NCBI GenBank assembly: GCA_964555585.1
Contig: CAZKSN010000001.1
Coordinates: 58,709-122,708, forward strand
DNA length: 64,000 nt
Reading direction: 5' to 3'
Source: an uncultured Muribaculaceae bacterium
GTDB lineage: Bacteria > Bacillota_I > Bacilli_A > RF39 > UBA660
The notes beneath the pieces are model-generated. The model did no database searches. It had not been told where the DNA came from and was given only the letters and a program-made list of their open reading frames with translations. The translations under genes were made by a program, and so were the position numbers. Shown one piece after another: positions 1,933 to 37,176 of the stretch (positions are counted from its first letter, which is position 1; every line of letters starts with the position of its first letter).

Positions 1933-1946
1933 TCTTTTTTTTAATA
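1921..1946. terminator. Bidirectional rho-independent terminator (AAGACTA-AAT-TAGTCTT + T-run; A-run on the other side)
   Basis: Perfect 7-bp inverted repeat overlapping the rpmB stop, followed by T8; it lies between convergent genes. Confidence 0.55.
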
Positions 1947-2429
1947 TATTAGTTCTTCCTTTATTTTTTCTATATCGTCCAAATAAAGTACATTCTTTCC
2001 ATTTTTTATTTTTATAAGAGTTGGTGACTTAATTAATAAATCTGCGGCTTTTTGAACTTTTTTATTTGATGATTCACTATTATATACAGCATTTACCTTT
2101 AAAAGCATATTTACTTTATATATGTGTAAGTCAGAACTTGTGTTATCTAATATATAATTTAGATATACATTATCTGAATTAAATTCATCAAAAACAACAT
2201 AATATTCTTTTTCCATTCTATTAAATGTAGATCCCGCCAAGATGTATTCATTGGAAATTTCTGCTTCTTTCTTTTCAGGAGCTTCATATCCTTTTTCAAA
2301 TATTCCCATCTTATCTAAAGCAAGCACAACTCCATACACAACTATAAACATTATAAATACTATAAAAACAGTTTTTAAATAATTTGAAGTATATTCAGTT
2401 TTAATAATTATTTCATTTTTCTTTTTCAT
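1941..2429 (-). CDS. hypothetical N-terminally membrane-anchored protein
   Basis: 162-aa ORF with one N-terminal TM helix (VFIVFIMFIVVYGVVLAL). No recognisable domain. Confidence 0.4.
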   Translation of the reverse strand: MKKKNEIIIKTEYTSNYLKTVFIVFIMFIVVYGVVLALDKMGIFEKGYEAPEKKEAEISNEYILAGSTFNRMEKEYYVVFDEFNSDNVYLNYILDNTSSDLHIYKVNMLLKVNAVYNSESSNKKVQKAADLLIKSPTLIKIKNGKNVLYLDDIEKIKEELIY

Positions 2430-2486
2430 AAATTCACCTATAAAAAATTATATCATGAAGTAAAAAAAATAGAAACATTTTTGTTT

Positions 2487-3476
2487 CTATTTAGTAAGTG
2501 CTACAGAACTTGCAGATGCTGCTATTTGTAAAATTTCCTCTTCAGTTAGATTTTGACCAATTATATAGTAATCTATTCCATTTTTTGTCCAATTAAGAGA
2601 TGTATCAGTAATTGAACCTAAAATATTTTCATAAAACACTAGATCACCTGATGAATTTATAACTTCATGGTCTTCAGAAACTGAAGCCACTTCTTCAATC
2701 ATTATAAATGGTTTTTCTCCAGTAAATGTAAGTATAACTCTTTCTGATGAATCCGTTTTTATCACTTCTTCATCTTTAAATGTTGTTCCGCTAGGTATAT
2801 ACATTGGATATATAACATCCTCTATCTCACTTGTAGCTTCATCTTCTTCACAGCAATCTTCATCTACATTATTGTCTAAACTAAAATAATCTTTTTCAAA
2901 TTCACTTTTATAATTGGAATCATTTACTACAAAAGTGATTTGAGCTATATTATCACTGTTAAAAACTTCTACTTTCTCTAATTCCATTTTATCATTGAAT
3001 GTCACTTTTTGATTTACTAAATTGCTGTTACTAGGATAATTTACTTTTGAAGTAAAAATATATTTATCATTTTTTTCTTCAAAACTTCTCTTAGAATCAT
3101 TCTTAAGATCATTTAAAATAGACTGAAGTATATAAGTTTGTGAACTGTTATTTGGCCATTCACTTTGAAATTTAAAGCTTTTATTAAGTGCTGGAGTAAT
3201 TACATATACACCATCTTCATTCTTTAGTATTATTTGTTCATGAGAGTTTTCTGCATTCACCAAACTTACTTTATAATAATCCCCTTCTTTATATGACACC
3301 TCTACATCATATAAATATTTTTCTTCATTACTTACTATTTCCATTGTTCCTTCTAAAGTATAAGCTTCATTATTTTCTATTTTATCATTAAACTTTTTCA
3401 ATGCTGAATCTGCATCAAATTTCTTACACCCTGCAAAAATAAGGCATAAACAAATTATCAATAATAATTTTTTCAA
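2487..3476 (-). CDS. lipoprotein, LolA-like/DUF4367-like (YdcC-type) domain
   Basis: Signal peptide with lipobox (LIFAGC). The C-terminal ...NWTKNGIDYYIIGQNLTEEEILQIAASA resembles DUF4367 sporulation lipoproteins. Confidence 0.45.
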   Translation of the reverse strand: MKKLLLIICLCLIFAGCKKFDADSALKKFNDKIENNEAYTLEGTMEIVSNEEKYLYDVEVSYKEGDYYKVSLVNAENSHEQIILKNEDGVYVITPALNKSFKFQSEWPNNSSQTYILQSILNDLKNDSKRSFEEKNDKYIFTSKVNYPSNSNLVNQKVTFNDKMELEKVEVFNSDNIAQITFVVNDSNYKSEFEKDYFSLDNNVDEDCCEEDEATSEIEDVIYPMYIPSGTTFKDEEVIKTDSSERVILTFTGEKPFIMIEEVASVSEDHEVINSSGDLVFYENILGSITDTSLNWTKNGIDYYIIGQNLTEEEILQIAASASSVALTK

Positions 3477-6096: not shown

Positions 6097-6597
6097 CTAT
6101 TGTCCATTTCCTGGAGTAGTATTATTGTTCTGATTAATTTCAAACGTATTGCTTGCTGCAGGGTTTATATTTACTATCGGTTCATCTGGTGTTGCATTTA
6201 CAGCAGGTTGCACTGGCGTAGGCTCTATAGCTGGTGGTGTAGGTACAGTTGCAGTTGGTTGTACAGGCGTTACTGTAGGTGTTACAGGACTTGCTAAATC
6301 AATAGTTTCAGAAACCTGAGTTGGTGCAACTTCAGGTGTTACCACTGGTGCAGGTTCAGGTGCCACTGGAGCCTTAACTTCTTCAACTTTAGCCGGTTCA
6401 ACACTAGGAGTAGAAATTTCAGTTGGAGCTTCAGTCTTATTCACATCAACAGGTGTTTCTTCAACATTAACATTATCACCTTTCTTTTTCTTGTTTTTCC
6501 CACTAACTAAAAGACCAATTAATGCTAGAGTTAATACTCCCGCCGCTATTAAAAAATAAGTATAGTTATCAGTTATAAAATTTAAAAAACTTTCCAT
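6097..6597 (-). CDS. membrane-anchored protein with Pro/Thr/Val-rich low-complexity ectodomain
   Basis: N-terminal TM (FLIAAGVLTLALIGLLV) then (P/T/V/E/A)-rich repeats. The locally higher GC is driven by Pro/Ala/Thr codons. Confidence 0.45.
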   Translation of the reverse strand: MESFLNFITDNYTYFLIAAGVLTLALIGLLVSGKNKKKKGDNVNVEETPVDVNKTEAPTEISTPSVEPAKVEEVKAPVAPEPAPVVTPEVAPTQVSETIDLASPVTPTVTPVQPTATVPTPPAIEPTPVQPAVNATPDEPIVNINPAASNTFEINQNNNTTPGNGQ

Positions 6598-16856: not shown

Positions 16857-18020
16857 TTATTTTGAAATGTTTGATATCTCTATATTTCTTTGAGTTATTT
16901 TATTTTCAATAGCTATTCTTTGTACAATAAATGTCGATATAACAAGATTTATAGTAAAACTTCCTCCATAACTTAAGAAAGGAACTGGAACTCCTGTTAA
17001 TGGTAATAGTGCAAGAATACCACAAAAATTTATTATTAAGTGAGTTAAAATATATATCATTACACCATAGCAAATTATTGAATTTCTTAAATTATAACTA
17101 CTTTTTGAAATTTTAATTATTCTTAATAAAATAAATAAATAACCTAAAATTAATACTATTCCAAATATTACTCCTAATTCTTCAACAGCAATAGGAAAGA
17201 TGAAATCAGTATGAGCTTCTGGTAAATATAAATATTTTTGAGTAGATTTTCCAATTCCTTTACCAAAAAGTCCTCCACCATTCATTGCAATAAATCCATT
17301 ACAAGCTTGATAACCTGTTTCTTCAGTATACCTAGTACAAGGTTCTTTAAAAACAAATCTACTTTTCTGCATATCAGTTAAAAAAGGAGTATCCGTTAAT
17401 ATAAATACTGTAAATACTATTGCAACTGCTCCTGCACCAATTTTCATTATAGTTGCAGCATTATTTTCTCTCATAGGAATACTTAAAAATGTAAAAAAAA
17501 CTATAAAAGCTATTATACTTGCAGTACCTAAATCAGGCTGTAAAGCAATTAAAATAAATATAATAATACTTAATGTTAATGGTATTAAAAATGAATATTT
17601 ACCACTTTTCTTATGTTCCATATCTCCAAAAAAAATACCTAAATATAAAATTAAAGCTATTTTAATAAATTCACTTGGCTGAAAAGAAAATTTTCCAAAA
17701 TCAATCCAACTTTTTGCATTATTAGTAATTTGACCATACATTAGTAGACCTACAAGAATTATAATTAATACTATTAAATAAGGAAACACTAGTTTTTTAT
17801 AATGTTTAGTTGGAAATTTTAAAACAAATATAAATCCTACAGCAAATGCAAATATATAAAATATAAATTGTCTAAAGAAAAAATAATATGGATTTACATC
17901 AAATTTAAGTACTGCAGCTACACTTGAAGCAGATAAAACTAATAATACCCCTATAGCTGAATATATTATTGTAAAAATTAATAATGGTTTATCTAGTTTA
18001 TTAAATATACTATTTTTCAT
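16857..18020 (-). CDS. SEDS-family peptidoglycan glycosyltransferase (FtsW/RodA/SpoVE)
   Basis: ~10 TM helices with SEDS motifs (FQPSEFIKIALILYLG; PDLGTASII). Confidence 0.8.
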   Translation of the reverse strand: MKNSIFNKLDKPLLIFTIIYSAIGVLLVLSASSVAAVLKFDVNPYYFFFRQFIFYIFAFAVGFIFVLKFPTKHYKKLVFPYLIVLIIILVGLLMYGQITNNAKSWIDFGKFSFQPSEFIKIALILYLGIFFGDMEHKKSGKYSFLIPLTLSIIIFILIALQPDLGTASIIAFIVFFTFLSIPMRENNAATIMKIGAGAVAIVFTVFILTDTPFLTDMQKSRFVFKEPCTRYTEETGYQACNGFIAMNGGGLFGKGIGKSTQKYLYLPEAHTDFIFPIAVEELGVIFGIVLILGYLFILLRIIKISKSSYNLRNSIICYGVMIYILTHLIINFCGILALLPLTGVPVPFLSYGGSFTINLVISTFIVQRIAIENKITQRNIEISNISK

Positions 18021-18151: not shown

Positions 18152-18316
18152 ATGTATTATTATGGATATAGTGGTGGATATGGTTCTCCATGCTATGGAT
18201 ACGGTGGATATCCTCATGGTGGCTGTGGCTACGGATATGGCGCTGCTATAATATTAGTATTATTTATTCTTTTAGTTGTAGTATTTGGAGCAGGATTCCT
18301 AAACTACAATAATTAA
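18152..18316 (+). CDS. YjcZ-family-like tiny Gly/Tyr-rich transmembrane sporulation peptide
   Basis: Not in the ORF track (54 aa): [65 protein letters not shown] 8 nt upstream. A Gly/Tyr/Cys head plus a single TM is the hallmark of YjcZ-type peptides. Confidence 0.45.
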
Positions 18317-18318
18317 AA

Positions 18319-18347
18319 AGGAAGCTTTAAAACTTCCTTTTTCTTTT
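18319..18347. terminator. bidirectional rho-independent terminator
   Basis: AGGAAG-CTTTAAAA-CTTCCT hairpin, flanked by an A-run upstream and a T-run downstream, between convergent genes. Confidence 0.5.
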
Positions 18348-19539
18348 ATATTTTTCTTTTTAAATTAATTCCTTCTTTAAAAGCACATTGATTTGAACAA
18401 GTAAAGTCTGAAAAAGTACATCTGGCTCCTTTTGAATGTTCTAATGCAGTTTGTAATAAAGGATGTTTAGATTTTTTATAAGCTATAATCATTTTATTTA
18501 AAGTCTCTTTTGTTTGGTTGCAAATCTCAAGTTGAGCAGCTGAACATAATCTTTCTTTAGTTTTTAATATAAATTTATCAAAAGTTCCTGATTCATTTAT
18601 TGAAATCAATTCTCCTTGAGGAAAAATATGAGCTACAGACTTCATATCATTTATCCACTCATTAATTAATATCTGATCATCTTCTAAAATAGGTGGAACA
18701 AAAAATTCTGTTTCTTCTAATAGTCTCATACTATATTCAAGAGTTCTATGTCTGTGAGCCTGAGCCAATTGAGCAAATGATCCTTTATAATTTGCTGAAT
18801 AAGAATAATCAAAAGAATCTTCTACATCATACTGACTAAATAAAGATAATTTTCTGTTTTTTCTATTAGTTTGCATTCTTGAATCCAGACAATTTAATTT
18901 TTCAAAACAATCAATGAATTCTAATAAATATGGAGATAGTCTTTTTTCAAAATCATTTTTATCTGCTTTATTTGTCAAATCTCTCATAAATCCGCAAATA
19001 CGGTTGAGTTGAATTAAAGGTAAGGTATGAATCATTTTTGTTGACATAAATACAGTAACCAAATATCTACTGTTTTCCTGTGCCAATTTTGTTATTTTCT
19101 TATCATCAAAAATATTACCGTACTTCTCTTTGATCTTTACTTTAAATATTTCCATCCATTTATTGTACAAATTTTCCTCTTCAGTTGTAATGGCAGGATC
19201 TGCAGCTCCATCAACAGGAGTATATCTTGAAGATTTTTCTGAAGTAGAGCACTGTCTTTCATTATTTAAAATCATTGCAACTATTTTTGGAATATTAACT
19301 ATTTCAAAACCTATATTAATATGTTCATAAGGTGTTTGATGTTCATTATTTAAAGTCATACTTTCTCTTTTTTCTGTTTTTTCAAAAGGTTCATCTTTTA
19401 ATTTTTCCCAACCTAAAGGCTCATAACATTCTCCAGCTATTTTTGCAGAATAATCTAAAGCTTTCTTTAAATCTAAAGTACCATCTTTCTTTAAAAACGG
19501 TGTATGAGGTAACAATGTCACCTGAATATTATTTGACAT
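18346..19539 (-). CDS. ThyX-family (flavin-dependent thymidylate synthase)-like protein, extended and with a degenerate RHR motif
   Basis: HQTPYEHINIGFEIVNIPKIVAMILNNERQCSTSEKSSRY parallels the ThyX core HETPFEH...[21 protein letters not shown], with RHR replaced by NER. ~397 aa versus ~220-250 for typical ThyX. Confidence 0.45.
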   Translation of the reverse strand: MSNNIQVTLLPHTPFLKKDGTLDLKKALDYSAKIAGECYEPLGWEKLKDEPFEKTEKRESMTLNNEHQTPYEHINIGFEIVNIPKIVAMILNNERQCSTSEKSSRYTPVDGAADPAITTEEENLYNKWMEIFKVKIKEKYGNIFDDKKITKLAQENSRYLVTVFMSTKMIHTLPLIQLNRICGFMRDLTNKADKNDFEKRLSPYLLEFIDCFEKLNCLDSRMQTNRKNRKLSLFSQYDVEDSFDYSYSANYKGSFAQLAQAHRHRTLEYSMRLLEETEFFVPPILEDDQILINEWINDMKSVAHIFPQGELISINESGTFDKFILKTKERLCSAAQLEICNQTKETLNKMIIAYKKSKHPLLQTALEHSKGARCTFSDFTCSNQCAFKEGINLKRKI

Positions 19540-19545
19540 ACTATT

Positions 19546-20442
19546 TCACTCCTTCTCTAAAAATCTTGTCATTCGTTTTTTATCAGTAATTTTATCAATT
19601 ACTATTTTATATATTTCTTCAGATATTTCCTCTGGTGTCTTTAAGTCTTCCAGTAACTGGTAATCTTCAACCTTTGAACTGTAAATATATTCCCAATTAT
19701 ATTTTTTAACCAGATCTAGATATGATTTTTCTGCCTCAATCAAATGTGCTTCATTTCTTTCATGTTCGTCCAGCTCATTTCTACCTTCCAGCAATTTCAA
19801 TATAGCTTTTCTAGGCATATGCAGAAATATTGTTATATCAGGTCTTGGTATCTCCATAATTTCATATTCCAAATCAATTATTTTTTCATATAAATTATTT
19901 CTTTTTTCTTCATTTTTTGCTTTTCCGCCCTGATGTCCTAAGTTTGAAGTGGTATATCTGTCTAAAATAATAACATCATTCTTGTACATTTCCTGCTCTA
20001 TTTCTTCTAAAAAACAATATCTTCTATCTGCAGCATAGTATACGCTCGCCACTAGAGGATCAACATTTACAGCACCTTCTTTAAAAAAAGATGTTGTGTT
20101 GTTTCTTAAAAAATTTAGTCCCTTTTTTAATAAATTTAAATAATTGAATGAATTATCACTTTCTTTTGCTTGTTTCTTTAATAAATTTCTCATTTCCCTT
20201 TTATTGAGCAGTTTCAATAAAATGTCTATTTCTTCTTTCGTTAAATTGTTTTTATTCCATTTTCCCAAGTAACATTCTCCGATTATTCTTCCTGTTGGTA
20301 ATTCATAATTTGGAAAAGAATATCGTTTAACTTTATATCCCGCAGCCTGCAGATTTTTAAATAAGCCTTTTGATTGAGTTTCTTTTCCAGAACAGTCAGT
20401 ACCTTCGATTGTAATAATCTTCGCACTTCTTTCTACACTCAT
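19546..20442 (-). CDS. thymidylate kinase (Tmk)-family protein with atypical P-loop
   Basis: IIGECYLGKW...DRYTTSNLGHQG...PDITIFLHMP parallels the Tmk DRF..S.LAYQG / PDLT.. regions. The P-loop is EGTDCSGKETQ (GK-E, not GK-[ST]). ~60-aa insertion and a C-terminal extension. Confidence 0.45.
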   Translation of the reverse strand: MSVERSAKIITIEGTDCSGKETQSKGLFKNLQAAGYKVKRYSFPNYELPTGRIIGECYLGKWNKNNLTKEEIDILLKLLNKREMRNLLKKQAKESDNSFNYLNLLKKGLNFLRNNTTSFFKEGAVNVDPLVASVYYAADRRYCFLEEIEQEMYKNDVIILDRYTTSNLGHQGGKAKNEEKRNNLYEKIIDLEYEIMEIPRPDITIFLHMPRKAILKLLEGRNELDEHERNEAHLIEAEKSYLDLVKKYNWEYIYSSKVEDYQLLEDLKTPEEISEEIYKIVIDKITDKKRMTRFLEKE

Positions 20443-20463: not shown

Positions 20464-20516
20464 ATTAAAACAATTTTAAAAATAATTGTCAATAAATTCA
20501 AAGAAAAATATATAAT
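20464..20516. promoter_or_regulatory. overlapping divergent sigma-A-type promoters (tmk-like operon on -, def on +)
   Basis: Minus: TTGACA-17-TTTAAT (20492..20464). Plus: TTGTCA-17-TATATA (20486..20514). Positioned upstream of the respective start codons. Confidence 0.4.
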
Positions 20517-21180: not shown

Positions 21181-22086
21181 ATGAAAAATAATAAAATTAG
21201 AGTTCTAATTTGGATTGTTTTACTTGTAATAACCCTTGGAATTGGAACTACTGGTTTAATACTTAGTGGTGATTTGAAAAATATTGGTTTCCTTAAACAT
21301 TTTTATAAAGTTGAAAATAAAATAAATTTGAATTTTGTTGCTCAGGAATTAAATAATTATTTGGATGAGTATTTTATAAATACTGATACTGTGGCAGCCG
21401 CAAGCGCTTTAGATAACATATTAAGTGTTACAATTAATAATGATGAAAATATAAATTTTGAATTCATATTAAATGATGACATATTATCAGGTGAATTTGG
21501 TACTGAAGATTCTACAATAGGAACAGATCTTTTTAATAGAATTACAGCAATTGTTCAGAATAAATATTTTGATGTTGAGATTGAAAATACTCTTACTACT
21601 CTATCAAGTGCAAATTCAGAATCATTTACAATTAAAAATGACGGATATGAAAAGAGAGAAGAAAATAATAATGTATTATGCAAATTAAATGTTAGTAAAA
21701 AAATAACTATAATTAATTTAAGTGACAGTTATATAAAAACTTCAGATTTAGTAAATGAAACTGAGTTTATTAAAGAAAATGATACATATCAGAAGAGTTT
21801 AAATAATATTATTATTGAAAAAACTGTATTAAATAATAAAATTATAATTTCAGTATATGAAAAAGATAATCTTACAGAAAACACTTATAAATCTTTAATA
21901 TCTTTCCTAACAATACTCTTTGATGAAAATGAGGCAACCAGCTTCACCAATCAATATCCAGTTATTTCTACAGATACTAATTTTGATAAATATACAGTTG
22001 AAATAAATCCGGAACCCTCTGAAAAGGAAAGCTTAATAACAGCAAATGGATATCAGTTTATTAGAGTAACTATAAATAATGAATAA
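21181..22086 (+). CDS. hypothetical N-terminally membrane-anchored protein, Asn/Thr-rich ectodomain
   Basis: 301-aa ORF. RBS AGGAGG 10 nt upstream. One TM (VLIWIVLLVITLGIGTTGLIL). No recognisable domain. Confidence 0.4.
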   Translation: MKNNKIRVLIWIVLLVITLGIGTTGLILSGDLKNIGFLKHFYKVENKINLNFVAQELNNYLDEYFINTDTVAAASALDNILSVTINNDENINFEFILNDDILSGEFGTEDSTIGTDLFNRITAIVQNKYFDVEIENTLTTLSSANSESFTIKNDGYEKREENNNVLCKLNVSKKITIINLSDSYIKTSDLVNETEFIKENDTYQKSLNNIIIEKTVLNNKIIISVYEKDNLTENTYKSLISFLTILFDENEATSFTNQYPVISTDTNFDKYTVEINPEPSEKESLITANGYQFIRVTINNE

Positions 22087-22136: not shown

Positions 22137-22709
22137 TTAATTATAAGCTTTTGCTTTTAAAGTTTTTTCCATTTCTTCTATTCTTTCAAAAATATTTTTT
22201 ATATAAGTTAAAATAAATACATGTGGCTGTTTCAAAAGATTAATTATATTAAATTTAAAGTTTTTTGATAACAGTGAATATTTTATGCTCAATCCTTCAT
22301 CTATTAAAATGGGAATAAAGGATAAAGTTATGGTAATGATTAAATTTATTTGATTTAAATCAATTCTAAATATTTTTAGTGGAAACAGTAAATCACTTAT
22401 AGCTTTAGATAAATTTATCGGAGTTAATATATATGAAATAATATAAGTTATGTTACATACAATCAGGAGTCTAATACCGATTATTAAAGAATTTGATATA
22501 TTAGAAAACATAATATTTACAAATATAATAAATAACATATAGGGAAGTAATTTATTTATATTATGAATTATATTTAATAAGCTTACCTTTATAAACAGTG
22601 CCAGTATTATTTGAAATATAAATAATACAGTTAGCAAATAATAATTACTTAAACTGAATAATATTAATGTATAAATTATAAAAGACAGCAGTATAACTGA
22701 ATATTTCAT
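22137..22709 (-). CDS. ECF transporter transmembrane (T) component
   Basis: 190-aa polytopic membrane protein, translationally coupled (overlap) to the upstream ABC ATPase, in an S-A-T order. Confidence 0.5.
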   Translation of the reverse strand: MKYSVILLSFIIYTLILFSLSNYYLLTVLFIFQIILALFIKVSLLNIIHNINKLLPYMLFIIFVNIMFSNISNSLIIGIRLLIVCNITYIISYILTPINLSKAISDLLFPLKIFRIDLNQINLIITITLSFIPILIDEGLSIKYSLLSKNFKFNIINLLKQPHVFILTYIKNIFERIEEMEKTLKAKAYN

Positions 22710-23515
22710 TCAATTTCATACAATAATCTAAGAATATTATCTTGATTATACTCTTCTATTATAATATTTTTAGATTTTAAATAAATAATTATTTTAACTA
22801 TAAAAGGTATTATGAAATTTAATTTAGTTAAATAATCAATATTATTTAATAAATCTTTTTTTAAGAATTCTTTAACAATTTCTCCATTGTCTATAACTAC
22901 TATTCTATCCGCTATTAAGAGTTCCTCCAGATTATTCGTAACAAATACTACTCCTATATTCTCTTTTACTAAATTTTTTATTAAATCATATATATCTTTT
23001 TTGCTTGAAGAGTCAAGCATTGAAGTTGATTCATCAAACACTATATACTTTGGTTTTATTGCCAAAATATTAGCTACAGCTATTTTTTGCCTCTGACCAA
23101 GTGACAATTCAAACGGATTACTATAAATATAGTCTGACATCCCTACTTTTTTCAAACTTTCTTTTATTATTTCACCAATTTTATCTTTTTCAAATTTTAA
23201 ATTATTTAAAGTGAAGGCAATATCATCATAAACTCTGTTAAAGATTATTTGATTGCTTGGATTCTGAAATACAATATTTACTTTTTTTCTAATATCAATT
23301 GATTTAGTATATTTATTTATTTCAAGTTCATCTATGGAAATATTTCCTTTAGTACATTCAAATATATTTGATATCACATTTGCCAAAGTGGATTTTCCGC
23401 TTCCGTTTCTACCAATTATTAATGTTGTTTCTCCCGATTTAATTTTTAAATTTATATTCTTTAATGCATTATTGCCATTATTATAGGTATAATAAACTTC
23501 TTTTAATTTAATCAT
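22706..23515 (-). CDS. ECF/ABC transporter ATP-binding (A) component
   Basis: Walker A GRNGSGKST, signature LSLGQRQKIAVA, Walker B IVFDESTSMLD. Single ATPase gene in the module. Confidence 0.8.
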   Translation of the reverse strand: MIKLKEVYYTYNNGNNALKNINLKIKSGETTLIIGRNGSGKSTLANVISNIFECTKGNISIDELEINKYTKSIDIRKKVNIVFQNPSNQIIFNRVYDDIAFTLNNLKFEKDKIGEIIKESLKKVGMSDYIYSNPFELSLGQRQKIAVANILAIKPKYIVFDESTSMLDSSSKKDIYDLIKNLVKENIGVVFVTNNLEELLIADRIVVIDNGEIVKEFLKKDLLNNIDYLTKLNFIIPFIVKIIIYLKSKNIIIEEYNQDNILRLLYEIE

Positions 23516-24041
23516 TAGTATTCTTTTTAAATTTATTTATTACAGGCTCTAATGCTTTCAATAGGAATATCATTGTAGTAATAATTATTGGAGTCATTAT
23601 TAATTGTTTTACAATTCTAAGTGGAATAATTATATTGGCGGCATTTTTAGTAATCATAATAACCCAAATTGTATTTAATATCCCATCTACAAACAATGTT
23701 ACCAGAACGACACTTAAAATTAATTTTAAAATTAATCTCTTATCTACTTTAAACATACCTTTTTTATATAGAATTAATCCATATATTCCTCCCGTTAATA
23801 AACCACTTAATGTAAAGCCTGGAAAATACGCTCCTATTGGGAATAACAATGCTCCTATTAGATCACTAAGCATACCAACCAAAGCTCCATATTTGTAACC
23901 TAGAAGAATAGATACTAAAATTAAAGGAACAAAACTGAAACCTATACTGACAATAGGTGTTCTTATTGATAAAAGCCTGCCTAAAATAATACAAATAGCT
24001 AACAAGAAAGAACTTATTAAAATCTTTTTTATCTTATCCAT
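23508..24041 (-). CDS. ECF transporter substrate-specific (S) component, substrate unknown
   Basis: 177 aa with ~6 TM helices and Gly-rich helices (LLTGGIYGLI). It is the first gene of the S-A-T module. Confidence 0.45.
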   Translation of the reverse strand: MDKIKKILISSFLLAICIILGRLLSIRTPIVSIGFSFVPLILVSILLGYKYGALVGMLSDLIGALLFPIGAYFPGFTLSGLLTGGIYGLILYKKGMFKVDKRLILKLILSVVLVTLFVDGILNTIWVIMITKNAANIIIPLRIVKQLIMTPIIITTMIFLLKALEPVINKFKKNTND

Positions 24042-36009: not shown

Positions 36010-37176
36010 TCAATATTTATTCTGCTGTTTGCTTATATTTAATATAATTCCAATAAACAATAAACTTGTCACTAAACTACTTCCTCCATAACTAATGAAT
36101 GGTAAGGTTACTCCGGTAATTGGAAGTATACCTACAACCACCATTAGATTCAATAAAGTTTGAAATATCAACATAAAAGAAAGTCCAAATGATAAATATT
36201 TAGCAAACAAGTCAGAAGTTGATAGACTGATTTTTATACATTTATAAAATATGGTTAAAAATAATATTGAAATCAATAATACTCCTAAAAAACCAAATTC
36301 TTCAGATATTATGGAAAAAATAAAATCTGTCTGAGGTTCAGGTAAATAAAAATGTTTTTGTCTGGAATTTAAAAAACCAAAGCCAAATAAACCTCCAGGT
36401 CCAATGGCATATAATGATTGAATAATTTGAAATCCACTTCCTAAAGGATCTTTCCATGGGTTAATAAATGAAGTGATTCTCTGTAATCTGTATGGTGCAA
36501 TTATAATTAATCCTATGATGCTTAATAATCCTAGTAAACCTAATTTAAAAAATACCTGAAGCTTTGCACCAGTAATAAAAATTAATCCAATTAAAGCACA
36601 AACAATTACCATTCCGGTTCCAAAATCCGGTTCTAACATAATTAATCCAAAGAAAAGAATAATAATGAATAATATTGGAAAAACAAATAACTTAACACTT
36701 CTTTTATCTTCATTATTTCTAGATAAAAATTTAGCAGTGAATATTACTAAACCAAGTTTAGCTATTTCACTTGGTTGTATTCCTAAATTTCCAATTCCAA
36801 ACCAGCTTCTTGAACCATTTCTAATTGAACCTATTCCAGGTATTAGGACAAGCACTAAAAGTAAAAAGCAAACCCCTAAAATGAGATTTGCTTTATTTTT
36901 ATATATATTATAGTTTATTTTTGACGCAATATACATTAGGAATATTCCAATTATCAAAAATATACTTTGACTAAAAACATATTTATATGCATTTTCATAC
37001 TTATACTCTGCCCATATATAACTTGAAGAATAAATCATTATTACTCCAAATATACATAAAAGAATAGTACAGATAAATAAAGTCCTATCAAATTTCACAT
37101 TTAACCCCCTTAGACTTTTTAAATCCAAACTGCGTAATAAATAGCGGCCATTCCAAGCATAAATCCTATTATCCAA
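36010..37176 (-). CDS. SEDS-family protein (SpoVE/FtsW-like) of the division/sporulation cell-wall cluster
   Basis: SEDS motifs (GIQPSEIAKLGLVIFTAKFL; PDFGTGMVI). Immediately downstream of mraY. Confidence 0.75.
   Translation of the reverse strand: MDNRIYAWNGRYLLRSLDLKSLRGLNVKFDRTLFICTILLCIFGVIMIYSSSYIWAEYKYENAYKYVFSQSIFLIIGIFLMYIASKINYNIYKNKANLILGVCFLLLVLVLIPGIGSIRNGSRSWFGIGNLGIQPSEIAKLGLVIFTAKFLSRNNEDKRSVKLFVFPILFIIILFFGLIMLEPDFGTGMVIVCALIGLIFITGAKLQVFFKLGLLGLLSIIGLIIIAPYRLQRITSFINPWKDPLGSGFQIIQSLYAIGPGGLFGFGFLNSRQKHFYLPEPQTDFIFSIISEEFGFLGVLLISILFLTIFYKCIKISLSTSDLFAKYLSFGLSFMLIFQTLLNLMVVVGILPITGVTLPFISYGGSSLVTSLLFIGIILNISKQQNKY

Follow-up and report, generated by a model that had tools for sequence, protein, structure and literature searches.

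ThyX, the flavin- and methylene-tetrahydrofolate-dependent thymidylate synthase, yields tetrahydrofolate in its own reaction, so that dihydrofolate reductase (DHFR) becomes dispensable, and it is an antibacterial target without a human counterpart. To our knowledge, all ThyX enzymes that have been solved or characterised are single-domain homotetramers, with the possible exception of the enzyme of Chlamydia, which is of double length (~530 amino acids, aa) and active, a point that our literature search did not confirm. Canonical ThyX proteins (PF02511/TIGR02170), such as those of Thermotoga maritima, Mycobacterium tuberculosis, Helicobacter pylori and PBCV-1, consist of one domain of 190-260 aa and carry a contiguous RHRX7-8S motif. 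The site for deoxyuridine monophosphate (dUMP) is shared between subunits: in the M. tuberculosis enzyme, Arg95 and Arg199 come from chain A, and Arg87, Ser105, Arg107 and the Tyr108 'lid' come from chain C (PMC6514825). Here we describe a thyX gene of unusual architecture, together with the tmk gene beside it, in a 64,000-nucleotide stretch of chromosome (hereafter the window) from an uncultured bacterium of the RF39 lineage (contig CAZKSN010000001.1, positions 58,709 to 122,708). The sequence comparisons suggest that the two genes are probably a housekeeping operon that serves the final steps in making dTTP (thymidine triphosphate), in which ThyX would be a single-chain pseudo-dimer synthase.

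In the window, an open reading frame (ORF) for a Tmk-like protein of 298 aa (19546-20442, minus strand) is followed after 6 bp, in the same direction, by an ORF for a ThyX-like protein of 397 aa (18346-19539, minus strand), which we call long ThyX. The initial annotation of this DNA, made from the letters alone, had placed both ORFs exactly there, and every peptide that it quoted was found (GTDCSGKET, DRYTTSNLGHQG, PDITIFLHMP, TPYEH, NNERQ and SEKSSRY). It had further regarded both proteins as catalytically degenerate, and had left the choice between highly divergent enzymes that are the only ones for dTMP (thymidine monophosphate) synthesis in the cell and paralogues retooled for another pyrimidine reaction.

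Results

Both proteins passed the cutoffs of their Pfam families (PF02511 for long ThyX; PF02223 for the Tmk-like protein, with 76 bits against a cutoff of 27) and both fell below the cutoffs of the corresponding NCBIfam equivalog models. The fold assignments are right, including the alignment to thymidylate kinase that had been proposed for the upstream protein, and both proteins are divergent. The N-terminal and C-terminal halves of long ThyX each matched ThyX structures separately. When compared by hhalign with a canonical ThyX reference alignment, composed of the T. maritima sequence, entered by hand, and four sequences taken from retrieved loci, the N-terminal half (aa 5-209) corresponded to canonical positions 1-214 (probability 98%, E 2e-14) and the C-terminal half (aa 244-372) to positions 59-212 (probability 87%, E 3.7e-6). 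The latter alignment places R263-H264-R265 on the RHR at positions 78-80 of T. maritima ThyX, 'FFVPP' on 'FYIPSP', and R330 on R174. A direct hhalign comparison of the two halves of the long-ThyX family gave no significant self-similarity (E 0.28), and the duplication is thus ancient; a phmmer search of the full-length protein against the PDB returned spurious matches alone (a NUDIX protein, E 0.014). As aligned, long ThyX is two fused ThyX copies with the catalytic motifs divided between them: a full N-terminal repeat (aa 1-215; 18895-19539, minus strand) and a truncated C-terminal repeat (aa ~236-372; 18424-18834, minus strand), which, compared with canonical ThyX, is without the Ser/Arg loop, one long helix and ~58 residues at the start of the fold.

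This arrangement is not peculiar to the window. The long-ThyX family comprises 2508 clusters at 90% identity, and at least 388 representatives at 50% identity matched with E<1e-30, nearly all of them 380-460 aa long. Its members come from metagenome-assembled genomes (MAGs) of gut and rumen Bacilli that have not been cultured; the MAGs bear the labels Bacilli, Erysipelotrichaceae, Tenericutes or 'Acholeplasma sp. CAG:878'. Residue conservation was counted over 127 representatives clustered at no more than 50% identity. In repeat 1, H73 (124 of 127), K85 (126), E101 (124), S103 (126), R105 (126), Y106 (122) and R158 (126) are kept, and the RHR and Arg174 motifs are missing. The former RHR is represented by N93-E94-R95 (19255-19263, minus strand; aligned to T. 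maritima R78-H79-R80), a position that varies across the family (N/S, then E/L/Q/T/V, then K/G/R/Q/H), and is followed by the substrate loop S100-E-K-S103-S-R105-Y106 (19222-19242, minus strand), which aligns to E86/S88/R90/Y91 of T. maritima. In repeat 2, the conserved residues are Q260 (115 of 127), R263 (125), H264 (122), R265 (124), R330 (126), Q336 (122) and E338 (126). The RHR of this repeat, R263-H264-R265 (18745-18753, minus strand), is intact, invariant in the family alignment and aligned to T. maritima R78-H79-R80, and the equivalent of the Arg174 motif is R330-L-C332 (18544-18552, minus strand), within KERLCxAAQLEI against LRADSHAQWEI in T. maritima, where C332 is as conserved as R330 (each 126 of 127). 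A contiguous RHRX7-8S is found in neither repeat, since repeat 1 reads NERQCSTSEKS, with the Ser and without the RHR, and repeat 2 reads RHRTLEYSMRLL, with the RHR and a shortened Ser/Arg loop; both halves of the motif exist, on different repeats. The replacement of RHR by NER, from which the degeneracy of this protein had been deduced, is thus true of repeat 1, but the intact RHR of repeat 2 had been overlooked, as had its Arg174-type motif with R330.

When the residues that contact dUMP and FAD (flavin adenine dinucleotide) in characterised enzymes were traced through the alignment, the full set was found to be present, each residue in 115-126 of the 127 representatives. Arg95 and Arg199 of M. 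tuberculosis ThyX correspond to R263 and R330, and Arg87, Ser105, Arg107 and Tyr108 to K85, S103, R105 and Y106; His53, Gln75 and Arg147 of T. maritima correspond to H73, Q260 and R158. The equivalents of all the residues named for canonical ThyX (His53, Gln75, Glu86, Ser88, Arg90, Tyr91, Arg147, the RHR and Arg174) are therefore in the one chain. Alignment and spacing suggest that repeat 2 stands for chain A of the M. tuberculosis enzyme and repeat 1 for chain C, and because of this match each chain of long ThyX would contain one complete composite active site. The retention of this set argues against the premise that the protein is degenerate. One family representative, P0263 (395 aa), departs from this pattern: its RHR is changed to KHG, R330 to N and C332 to S, and C38 and C385 are gone together with them. 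P0263 may be a decayed copy or a pseudo-enzyme, and the joint loss hints at a functional coupling between the catalytic residues and the cysteine cluster described below.

The gene order around thymidylate synthase genes in related uncultured Bacilli provides the decisive evidence for a function in dTMP synthesis. We examined 88 long-thyX loci, the window included, and 83 metagenome loci with the Tmk type of the window, with 10 kb on either side. Between tmk (or tmk-NT5C) and ftsW, these genomes carry either thyA-folA or long thyX. The order is rnhB, tmk, NT5C, thyA, folA, ftsW, rplS, lepB in two loci (L088 and L093), with rnhB divided from the rest, and the same without NT5C in a third (L091); in L090 it is rnhB, tmk, long thyX, ftsW, rplS, lepB, with long thyX exactly in the place of thyA-folA. 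The window itself reads def, tmk, long thyX, ftsW, and L020 reads def, tmk, NT5C, long thyX and, further on, ftsW. Neither ThyA nor DHFR was found within 10 kb in any of the 88 long-thyX loci. Because ThyX makes tetrahydrofolate and DHFR is then no longer needed, the joint loss of thyA and folA in favour of thyX is the expected signature of displacement. Tmk is the only strongly conserved neighbour of long thyX (38 of 88 loci, or 43 by a looser count), usually lying within 0-3 bp of it, upstream or downstream, and the Tmk proteins at these loci divide by sequence into a GKET-like type and a canonical type with GK[ST]T. Genes for FolD and GlyA, the suppliers of methylene-tetrahydrofolate, lie near long thyX in 5-6 loci. 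Like a canonical thyX, long thyX would stand in for thyA and folA, and it has genomic links to tmk, folD and glyA.

A coupling to dTMP synthesis is also seen from the side of Tmk. The neighbours in the 83 loci were ThyA and/or DHFR in 27, long ThyX in 7 and other forms of ThyX in 4 (two single-domain, two tandem proteins of 476-488 aa), and the remaining loci were mostly cut contigs. The part of the initial annotation that regarded the pair as divergent enzymes of dTMP synthesis is supported, as this Tmk family adjoins thyA-folA, canonical thyX or long thyX, and long thyX fills the thyA-folA slot. A gene for a 5'(3')-deoxyribonucleotidase (PF06941, NT5C) was also observed repeatedly between tmk and either thyA or long thyX (L088:8735-9304, L093:6726-7295, L020:9433-9999, and in L073, L075 and L083), which suggests that tmk, NT5C and a thymidylate synthase form a conserved module for deoxynucleoside monophosphate homeostasis.

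The Tmk-like protein of the window belongs to a dTMP-kinase family with the P-loop subtype GTD[CG]SGKxT, with 4673 homologues of a typical length of 242-244 aa. Its family profile matched 28 thymidylate kinases of the PDB at E<1e-5, and the best match was the M. tuberculosis enzyme (TMPK; 1g3u/4unp, E 1e-16), which is also the best NCBIfam match (NF005923). The P-loop, G14-T-D-C-S-G-K20-E21-T22 (20377-20403, minus strand), aligns to GVDGAGKRT of 1g3u. The family form is EGTD[CG]SGKxTQ, in which G14, D16, G19, K20 and T22 are invariant in the family alignment, position 17 is C or G there (C, G or S overall), and position 21, after the Lys, is E, A, Q or N there and E, Q, A, S, T, N, R or G across the wider sample of loci. 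Although GTDCSGKE does not fit the Walker A pattern GxxxxGK[ST], having Glu at the Ser/Thr position and the invariant Thr one residue further on, GKRT of M. tuberculosis TMPK deviates in the same way. That enzyme is catalytically active, and the lack of Ser/Thr after the P-loop Lys is thus no sign of degeneracy. The Cys and the Glu that had led to the P-loop being called degenerate occupy variable positions, and the motif is typical of its family.

Other motifs of the two kinases also agree. D161-R162-Y163 (19954-19962, minus strand), F43-P44, R140-R141, S166-N167 and R221 are invariant in the family alignment, Y46 is nearly so (at least 90%), and these residues align with those of M. tuberculosis TMPK, so that the FPxY and DRY motifs and the P-loop GxDGxGK-x-T are common to both. 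The window protein differs from M. tuberculosis TMPK in having Glu (variable in the family) rather than Arg after the P-loop Lys, in a LID region with a single invariant Arg, and in an extra insertion. This insertion, estimated earlier at ~60 aa, is real: it spans ~54 aa at about residues 62-115 (20098-20259, minus strand) and is lineage-specific, being found only in the window protein and its closest homologue, P0122 (78% identical), and gapped in the other 14 aligned homologues.

Several other unusual ThyX forms were encountered in the loci. In a single ORF of 763 aa (L158:5950-8241 and L159:2733-5024), a Tmk of the GTDCSGKST type is joined to a tandem ThyX whose repeat 1 has NRL...EKSTRY and whose repeat 2 has RHR; the protein passes the NCBIfam thyX cutoff (93 bits, in two stretches) and, as a Rosetta-stone fusion, ties Tmk to tandem ThyX. 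Tandem proteins of 476-488 aa (L104:4532-5998 and L151:4563-5993) adjoin the Tmk type of the window, score 107 bits, above the equivalog cutoff, and have a repeat 1 without RHR and a repeat 2 with RHR, RxC(C)xKAQ and a CX5CX6C tail. Long ThyX therefore resembles these proteins in having two repeats per chain, the RHR lost from repeat 1 and present in repeat 2, and the same Tmk type adjoining or fused, but it differs in its truncated second repeat and in its score, the others having two full-length repeats and scores of 93-107 bits. Since only ~57 residues align when the profile of the 400-aa family is compared with the 476-aa tandem form, we do not claim a common duplication event. The single-domain clostridial ThyX proteins with a cysteine tail (L167:1497-2267, L168:2086-2874 and P0415-P0534) are clear equivalogs by their NCBIfam scores. 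For instance, the 262-aa protein of L168 reaches 204 bits and has LRCCxRAQWEI and a CX4CX6C tail. Among the best 120 of at least 8000 matches to this form, the tail was present in 120 of 120 and a double Cys after the Arg174 equivalent in 115 of 120; judged by its sequence pattern, the tail looks like an unstudied metal site in an otherwise canonical ThyX.

Long ThyX has five near-invariant cysteines of its own: C38, C332 (two residues past R330), and C374, C381 and C385, which form a C374-x6-C381-x3-C385 tail (18385-18420, minus strand). The tail cysteines are kept in 104-110 of the 127 representatives, and all five cysteines occur together with the RHR and R330 in 90 of 127, the exceptions being mostly C-terminal gaps. 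The T. maritima sequence in the reference alignment has none of the five, and we know of no characterised ThyX enzyme that has them. Long ThyX shares with the single-domain clostridial proteins the Cys right after the Arg174 equivalent (KERLCxAAQLEI against LRCCxRAQWEI) and a three-Cys C-terminal tail, but those proteins consist of one domain with a contiguous RHR...S, and the spacing of their tail is CX4CX6C rather than CX6CX3C. The tail of long ThyX had low confidence (pLDDT, predicted local distance difference test) in a full-length model of the apo form. The literature searched contained no account of a metal site in ThyX. The conservation pattern suggests that C38, C332, C374, C381 and C385 bind a metal close to the active site, either Zn in a structural role or an Fe-S cluster; a redox role for the cluster is speculative.

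The DNA around the operon is a chromosome segment of ~25% G+C. Its genes include comEC, comEA, ftsW, def, genes of an energy-coupling factor (ECF) transporter, smc, rnc, rpoB/C, and those for SpoIIIAH, a Germane-domain protein and YlbD; the host is a spore-forming, wall-bearing member of the Bacilli. The sigma-A-like promoter that had been assigned to the operon, TTGACA-17-TTTAAT, is present as a string upstream of tmk (20464-20492, minus strand), preceded by TGT and followed by GAGG, a ribosome-binding site 8 nt ahead of the ATG. However, it is not statistically distinctive, as promoter-like sites occur in this DNA at chance density (17 found, 17.4 expected from shuffling), and it was absent from the list of the promoter scanner; for the former reason we dropped the promoter as evidence. 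A bidirectional intrinsic terminator hairpin (18315-18342, both strands) lies 3 nt past the thyX stop (2 such sites found, 0.7 expected). Sharing this terminator, and convergent with thyX, is a gene for a Gly/Tyr/Cys-rich protein of 54 aa with one transmembrane segment (18152-18316, plus strand), which weakly resembles the very small sporulation proteins of the YjcZ family (TIGR01732; 17.8 bits, slightly below the cutoff of 21.35). Two FtsW/RodA-family paralogues are encoded in the window (16857-18020 and 36010-37176, minus strand), and the one adjoining thyX corresponds by synteny to the ftsW that marks the edge of the thyA-folA or thyX slot in related genomes. At 2-4 kb from the operon (22137-24041, minus strand) lie genes for a CbiQ-type ECF T component, an ATPase and a riboflavin-type S component (PF07155), riboflavin being the precursor of FAD. 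Window ORFs of 301, 162, 329 and 166 aa (regions 21181-22086, plus strand; 1941-3476 and 6097-6597, minus strand) had no Pfam match at E<=1e-5, and that of 301 aa had no NCBIfam match either.

Discussion

We propose that long ThyX is a flavin- and methylene-tetrahydrofolate-dependent thymidylate synthase converting dUMP to dTMP, and that the 298-aa protein is a dTMP kinase that carries the product on to dTDP (thymidine diphosphate). An ancestral thyX would have been duplicated and fused, and each repeat would then have lost the half of the active site that the other kept. Repeat 1 would give the substrate-loop side (K85, E101, S103, R105, the Y106 'lid', H73 and R158) and repeat 2 the FAD/dUMP side (Q260, R263-H264-R265, R330, Q336 and E338). 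Because these two sets come from different subunits in canonical homotetramers, we infer one composite site per chain, and a dimer of long-ThyX chains would then mimic the tetramer with half the sites, presumably with the five cysteines holding a metal beside the active site.

Several observations weigh against this proposal. With the NCBIfam ThyX equivalog model (TIGR02170), long ThyX scored 38.8 bits against a cutoff of 87.9, whereas 93-204 bits were reached by other relatives from neighbouring loci, both tandem and single-domain, and Tmk likewise fell short of its equivalog models (TIGR00041, 67.4 bits against 83.25; NF005923, 79.2 against 193). No characterised member of the 400-aa family was found in the literature searched. 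About half of the long-thyX loci are without an adjacent tmk, our view covers 64 kb of the genome from which the window comes and, at the related loci, 10 kb on either side, and the juxtaposition of repeat-1 and repeat-2 residues, as well as that of the cysteines, is deduced from the alignment.

The low equivalog scores of both proteins could also mean that they are paralogues retooled for other chemistry, such as a UMP (uridine monophosphate) methylation like that of PolB, a hydroxymethylation of dCMP (deoxycytidine monophosphate) or dUMP, or a modified-base pathway, with the kinase acting on the unusual product; such a change would be compatible with the additional cysteine cluster and the modified architecture. 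We consider this quite improbable. Long thyX lies exactly at the thyA-folA position of related genomes, beside the same Tmk orthologue and among the housekeeping genes ftsW, def and rplS, with FolD and GlyA linked in some loci, and the dUMP-contacting residues are near-invariant, including the Tyr 'lid' and the Arg174 equivalent. PolB itself, the UMP/dUMP C5-methylase of polyoxin biosynthesis with a ThyX fold (PDB 4p5a), is a single-domain protein encoded in an antibiotic cluster, whereas long thyX has a housekeeping context and no such cluster. A phage origin or a phage-type hypermodification pathway was rejected, as tblastn found no match to long ThyX in 50,697 phage records and the protein had no PHROG match. 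On the whole, no evidence was found in support of the retooling that the initial annotation had raised.

It is somewhat less improbable, but still unlikely, that the operon is functional and redundant, with a conventional thyA or thyX (and tmk) elsewhere in the genome and long ThyX reserved for particular conditions, for example anaerobic growth or low NADPH. Some bacteria, Mycobacterium and Bacillus anthracis among them, have thyA as well as thyX (PMC6514825), and the limited span of DNA in view leaves room for further copies. Nevertheless, neither the 64-kb window nor any of the 88 long-thyX loci contained a further Tmk or ThyX, a ThyA or a DHFR, and the syntenic slot holds thyA-folA or thyX, never both. 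The genomes are also small, one closed MAG being 1.31 Mb, which makes redundancy less likely. That one or both proteins are catalytically dead, structural or regulatory relics is the least probable of these explanations, to the point of being barely credible. It could draw on the absence of the RHR from repeat 1, on the absence of Ser/Thr after the P-loop Lys of Tmk, and on P0263, where the RHR, R330 and several cysteines are missing together; against it, the complete composite catalytic set is near-invariant over at least 127 clusters at no more than 50% identity, and in Tmk the P-loop Lys, the DRY and ~55 other positions are invariant, with a P-loop variant that aligns with that of M. tuberculosis TMPK, whose activity is established.

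A dTMP synthesis and phosphorylation operon thus remains the explanation that we favour, and the answer to the question raised by the initial annotation is mostly ordinary: the pathway is ordinary and the architecture of the enzyme is unusual. In the literature searched, we found no description of a single-chain pseudo-dimer whose repeats have lost complementary motifs and which has a cysteine cluster, and nothing relevant on Fe-S ThyX, tandem ThyX, ThyX-like proteins or ThyX in RF39. If the proposal is true, this single-chain pseudo-dimer would be a 'half-of-the-sites' ThyX that arose in nature. With their complementary losses of motifs, the two repeats are a clear natural case of domain duplication followed by subfunctionalisation, and these losses settle which residues are cis-acting and which are trans-acting.

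The cysteine cluster is common to thousands of clostridial ThyX proteins and points to a metal site, so far unstudied, by which the enzyme's reductant or its sensitivity to oxygen could be altered. We regard it as doubtful, though worth stating, that the four to five cysteines hold an Fe-S cluster by the flavin and allow tandem ThyX to be reduced by ferredoxin or flavodoxin rather than by NAD(P)H. If this were the case, the same would hold for the very large uncharacterised clade of cysteine-tailed ThyX proteins of anaerobic Firmicutes, and thymidylate synthesis would then have a third type of mechanism.

For the organisms concerned, the consequences are more immediate. Since rules based on RHRX7-8S and the NCBIfam equivalog model under-call long ThyX, false calls of thymidine auxotrophy are possible in these genomes. 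At 90% identity, long ThyX falls into about 2500 clusters. Its hosts are abundant Bacilli of the gut that have not been cultured, and in them the active site for making dTMP would be built from two non-identical fused repeats.

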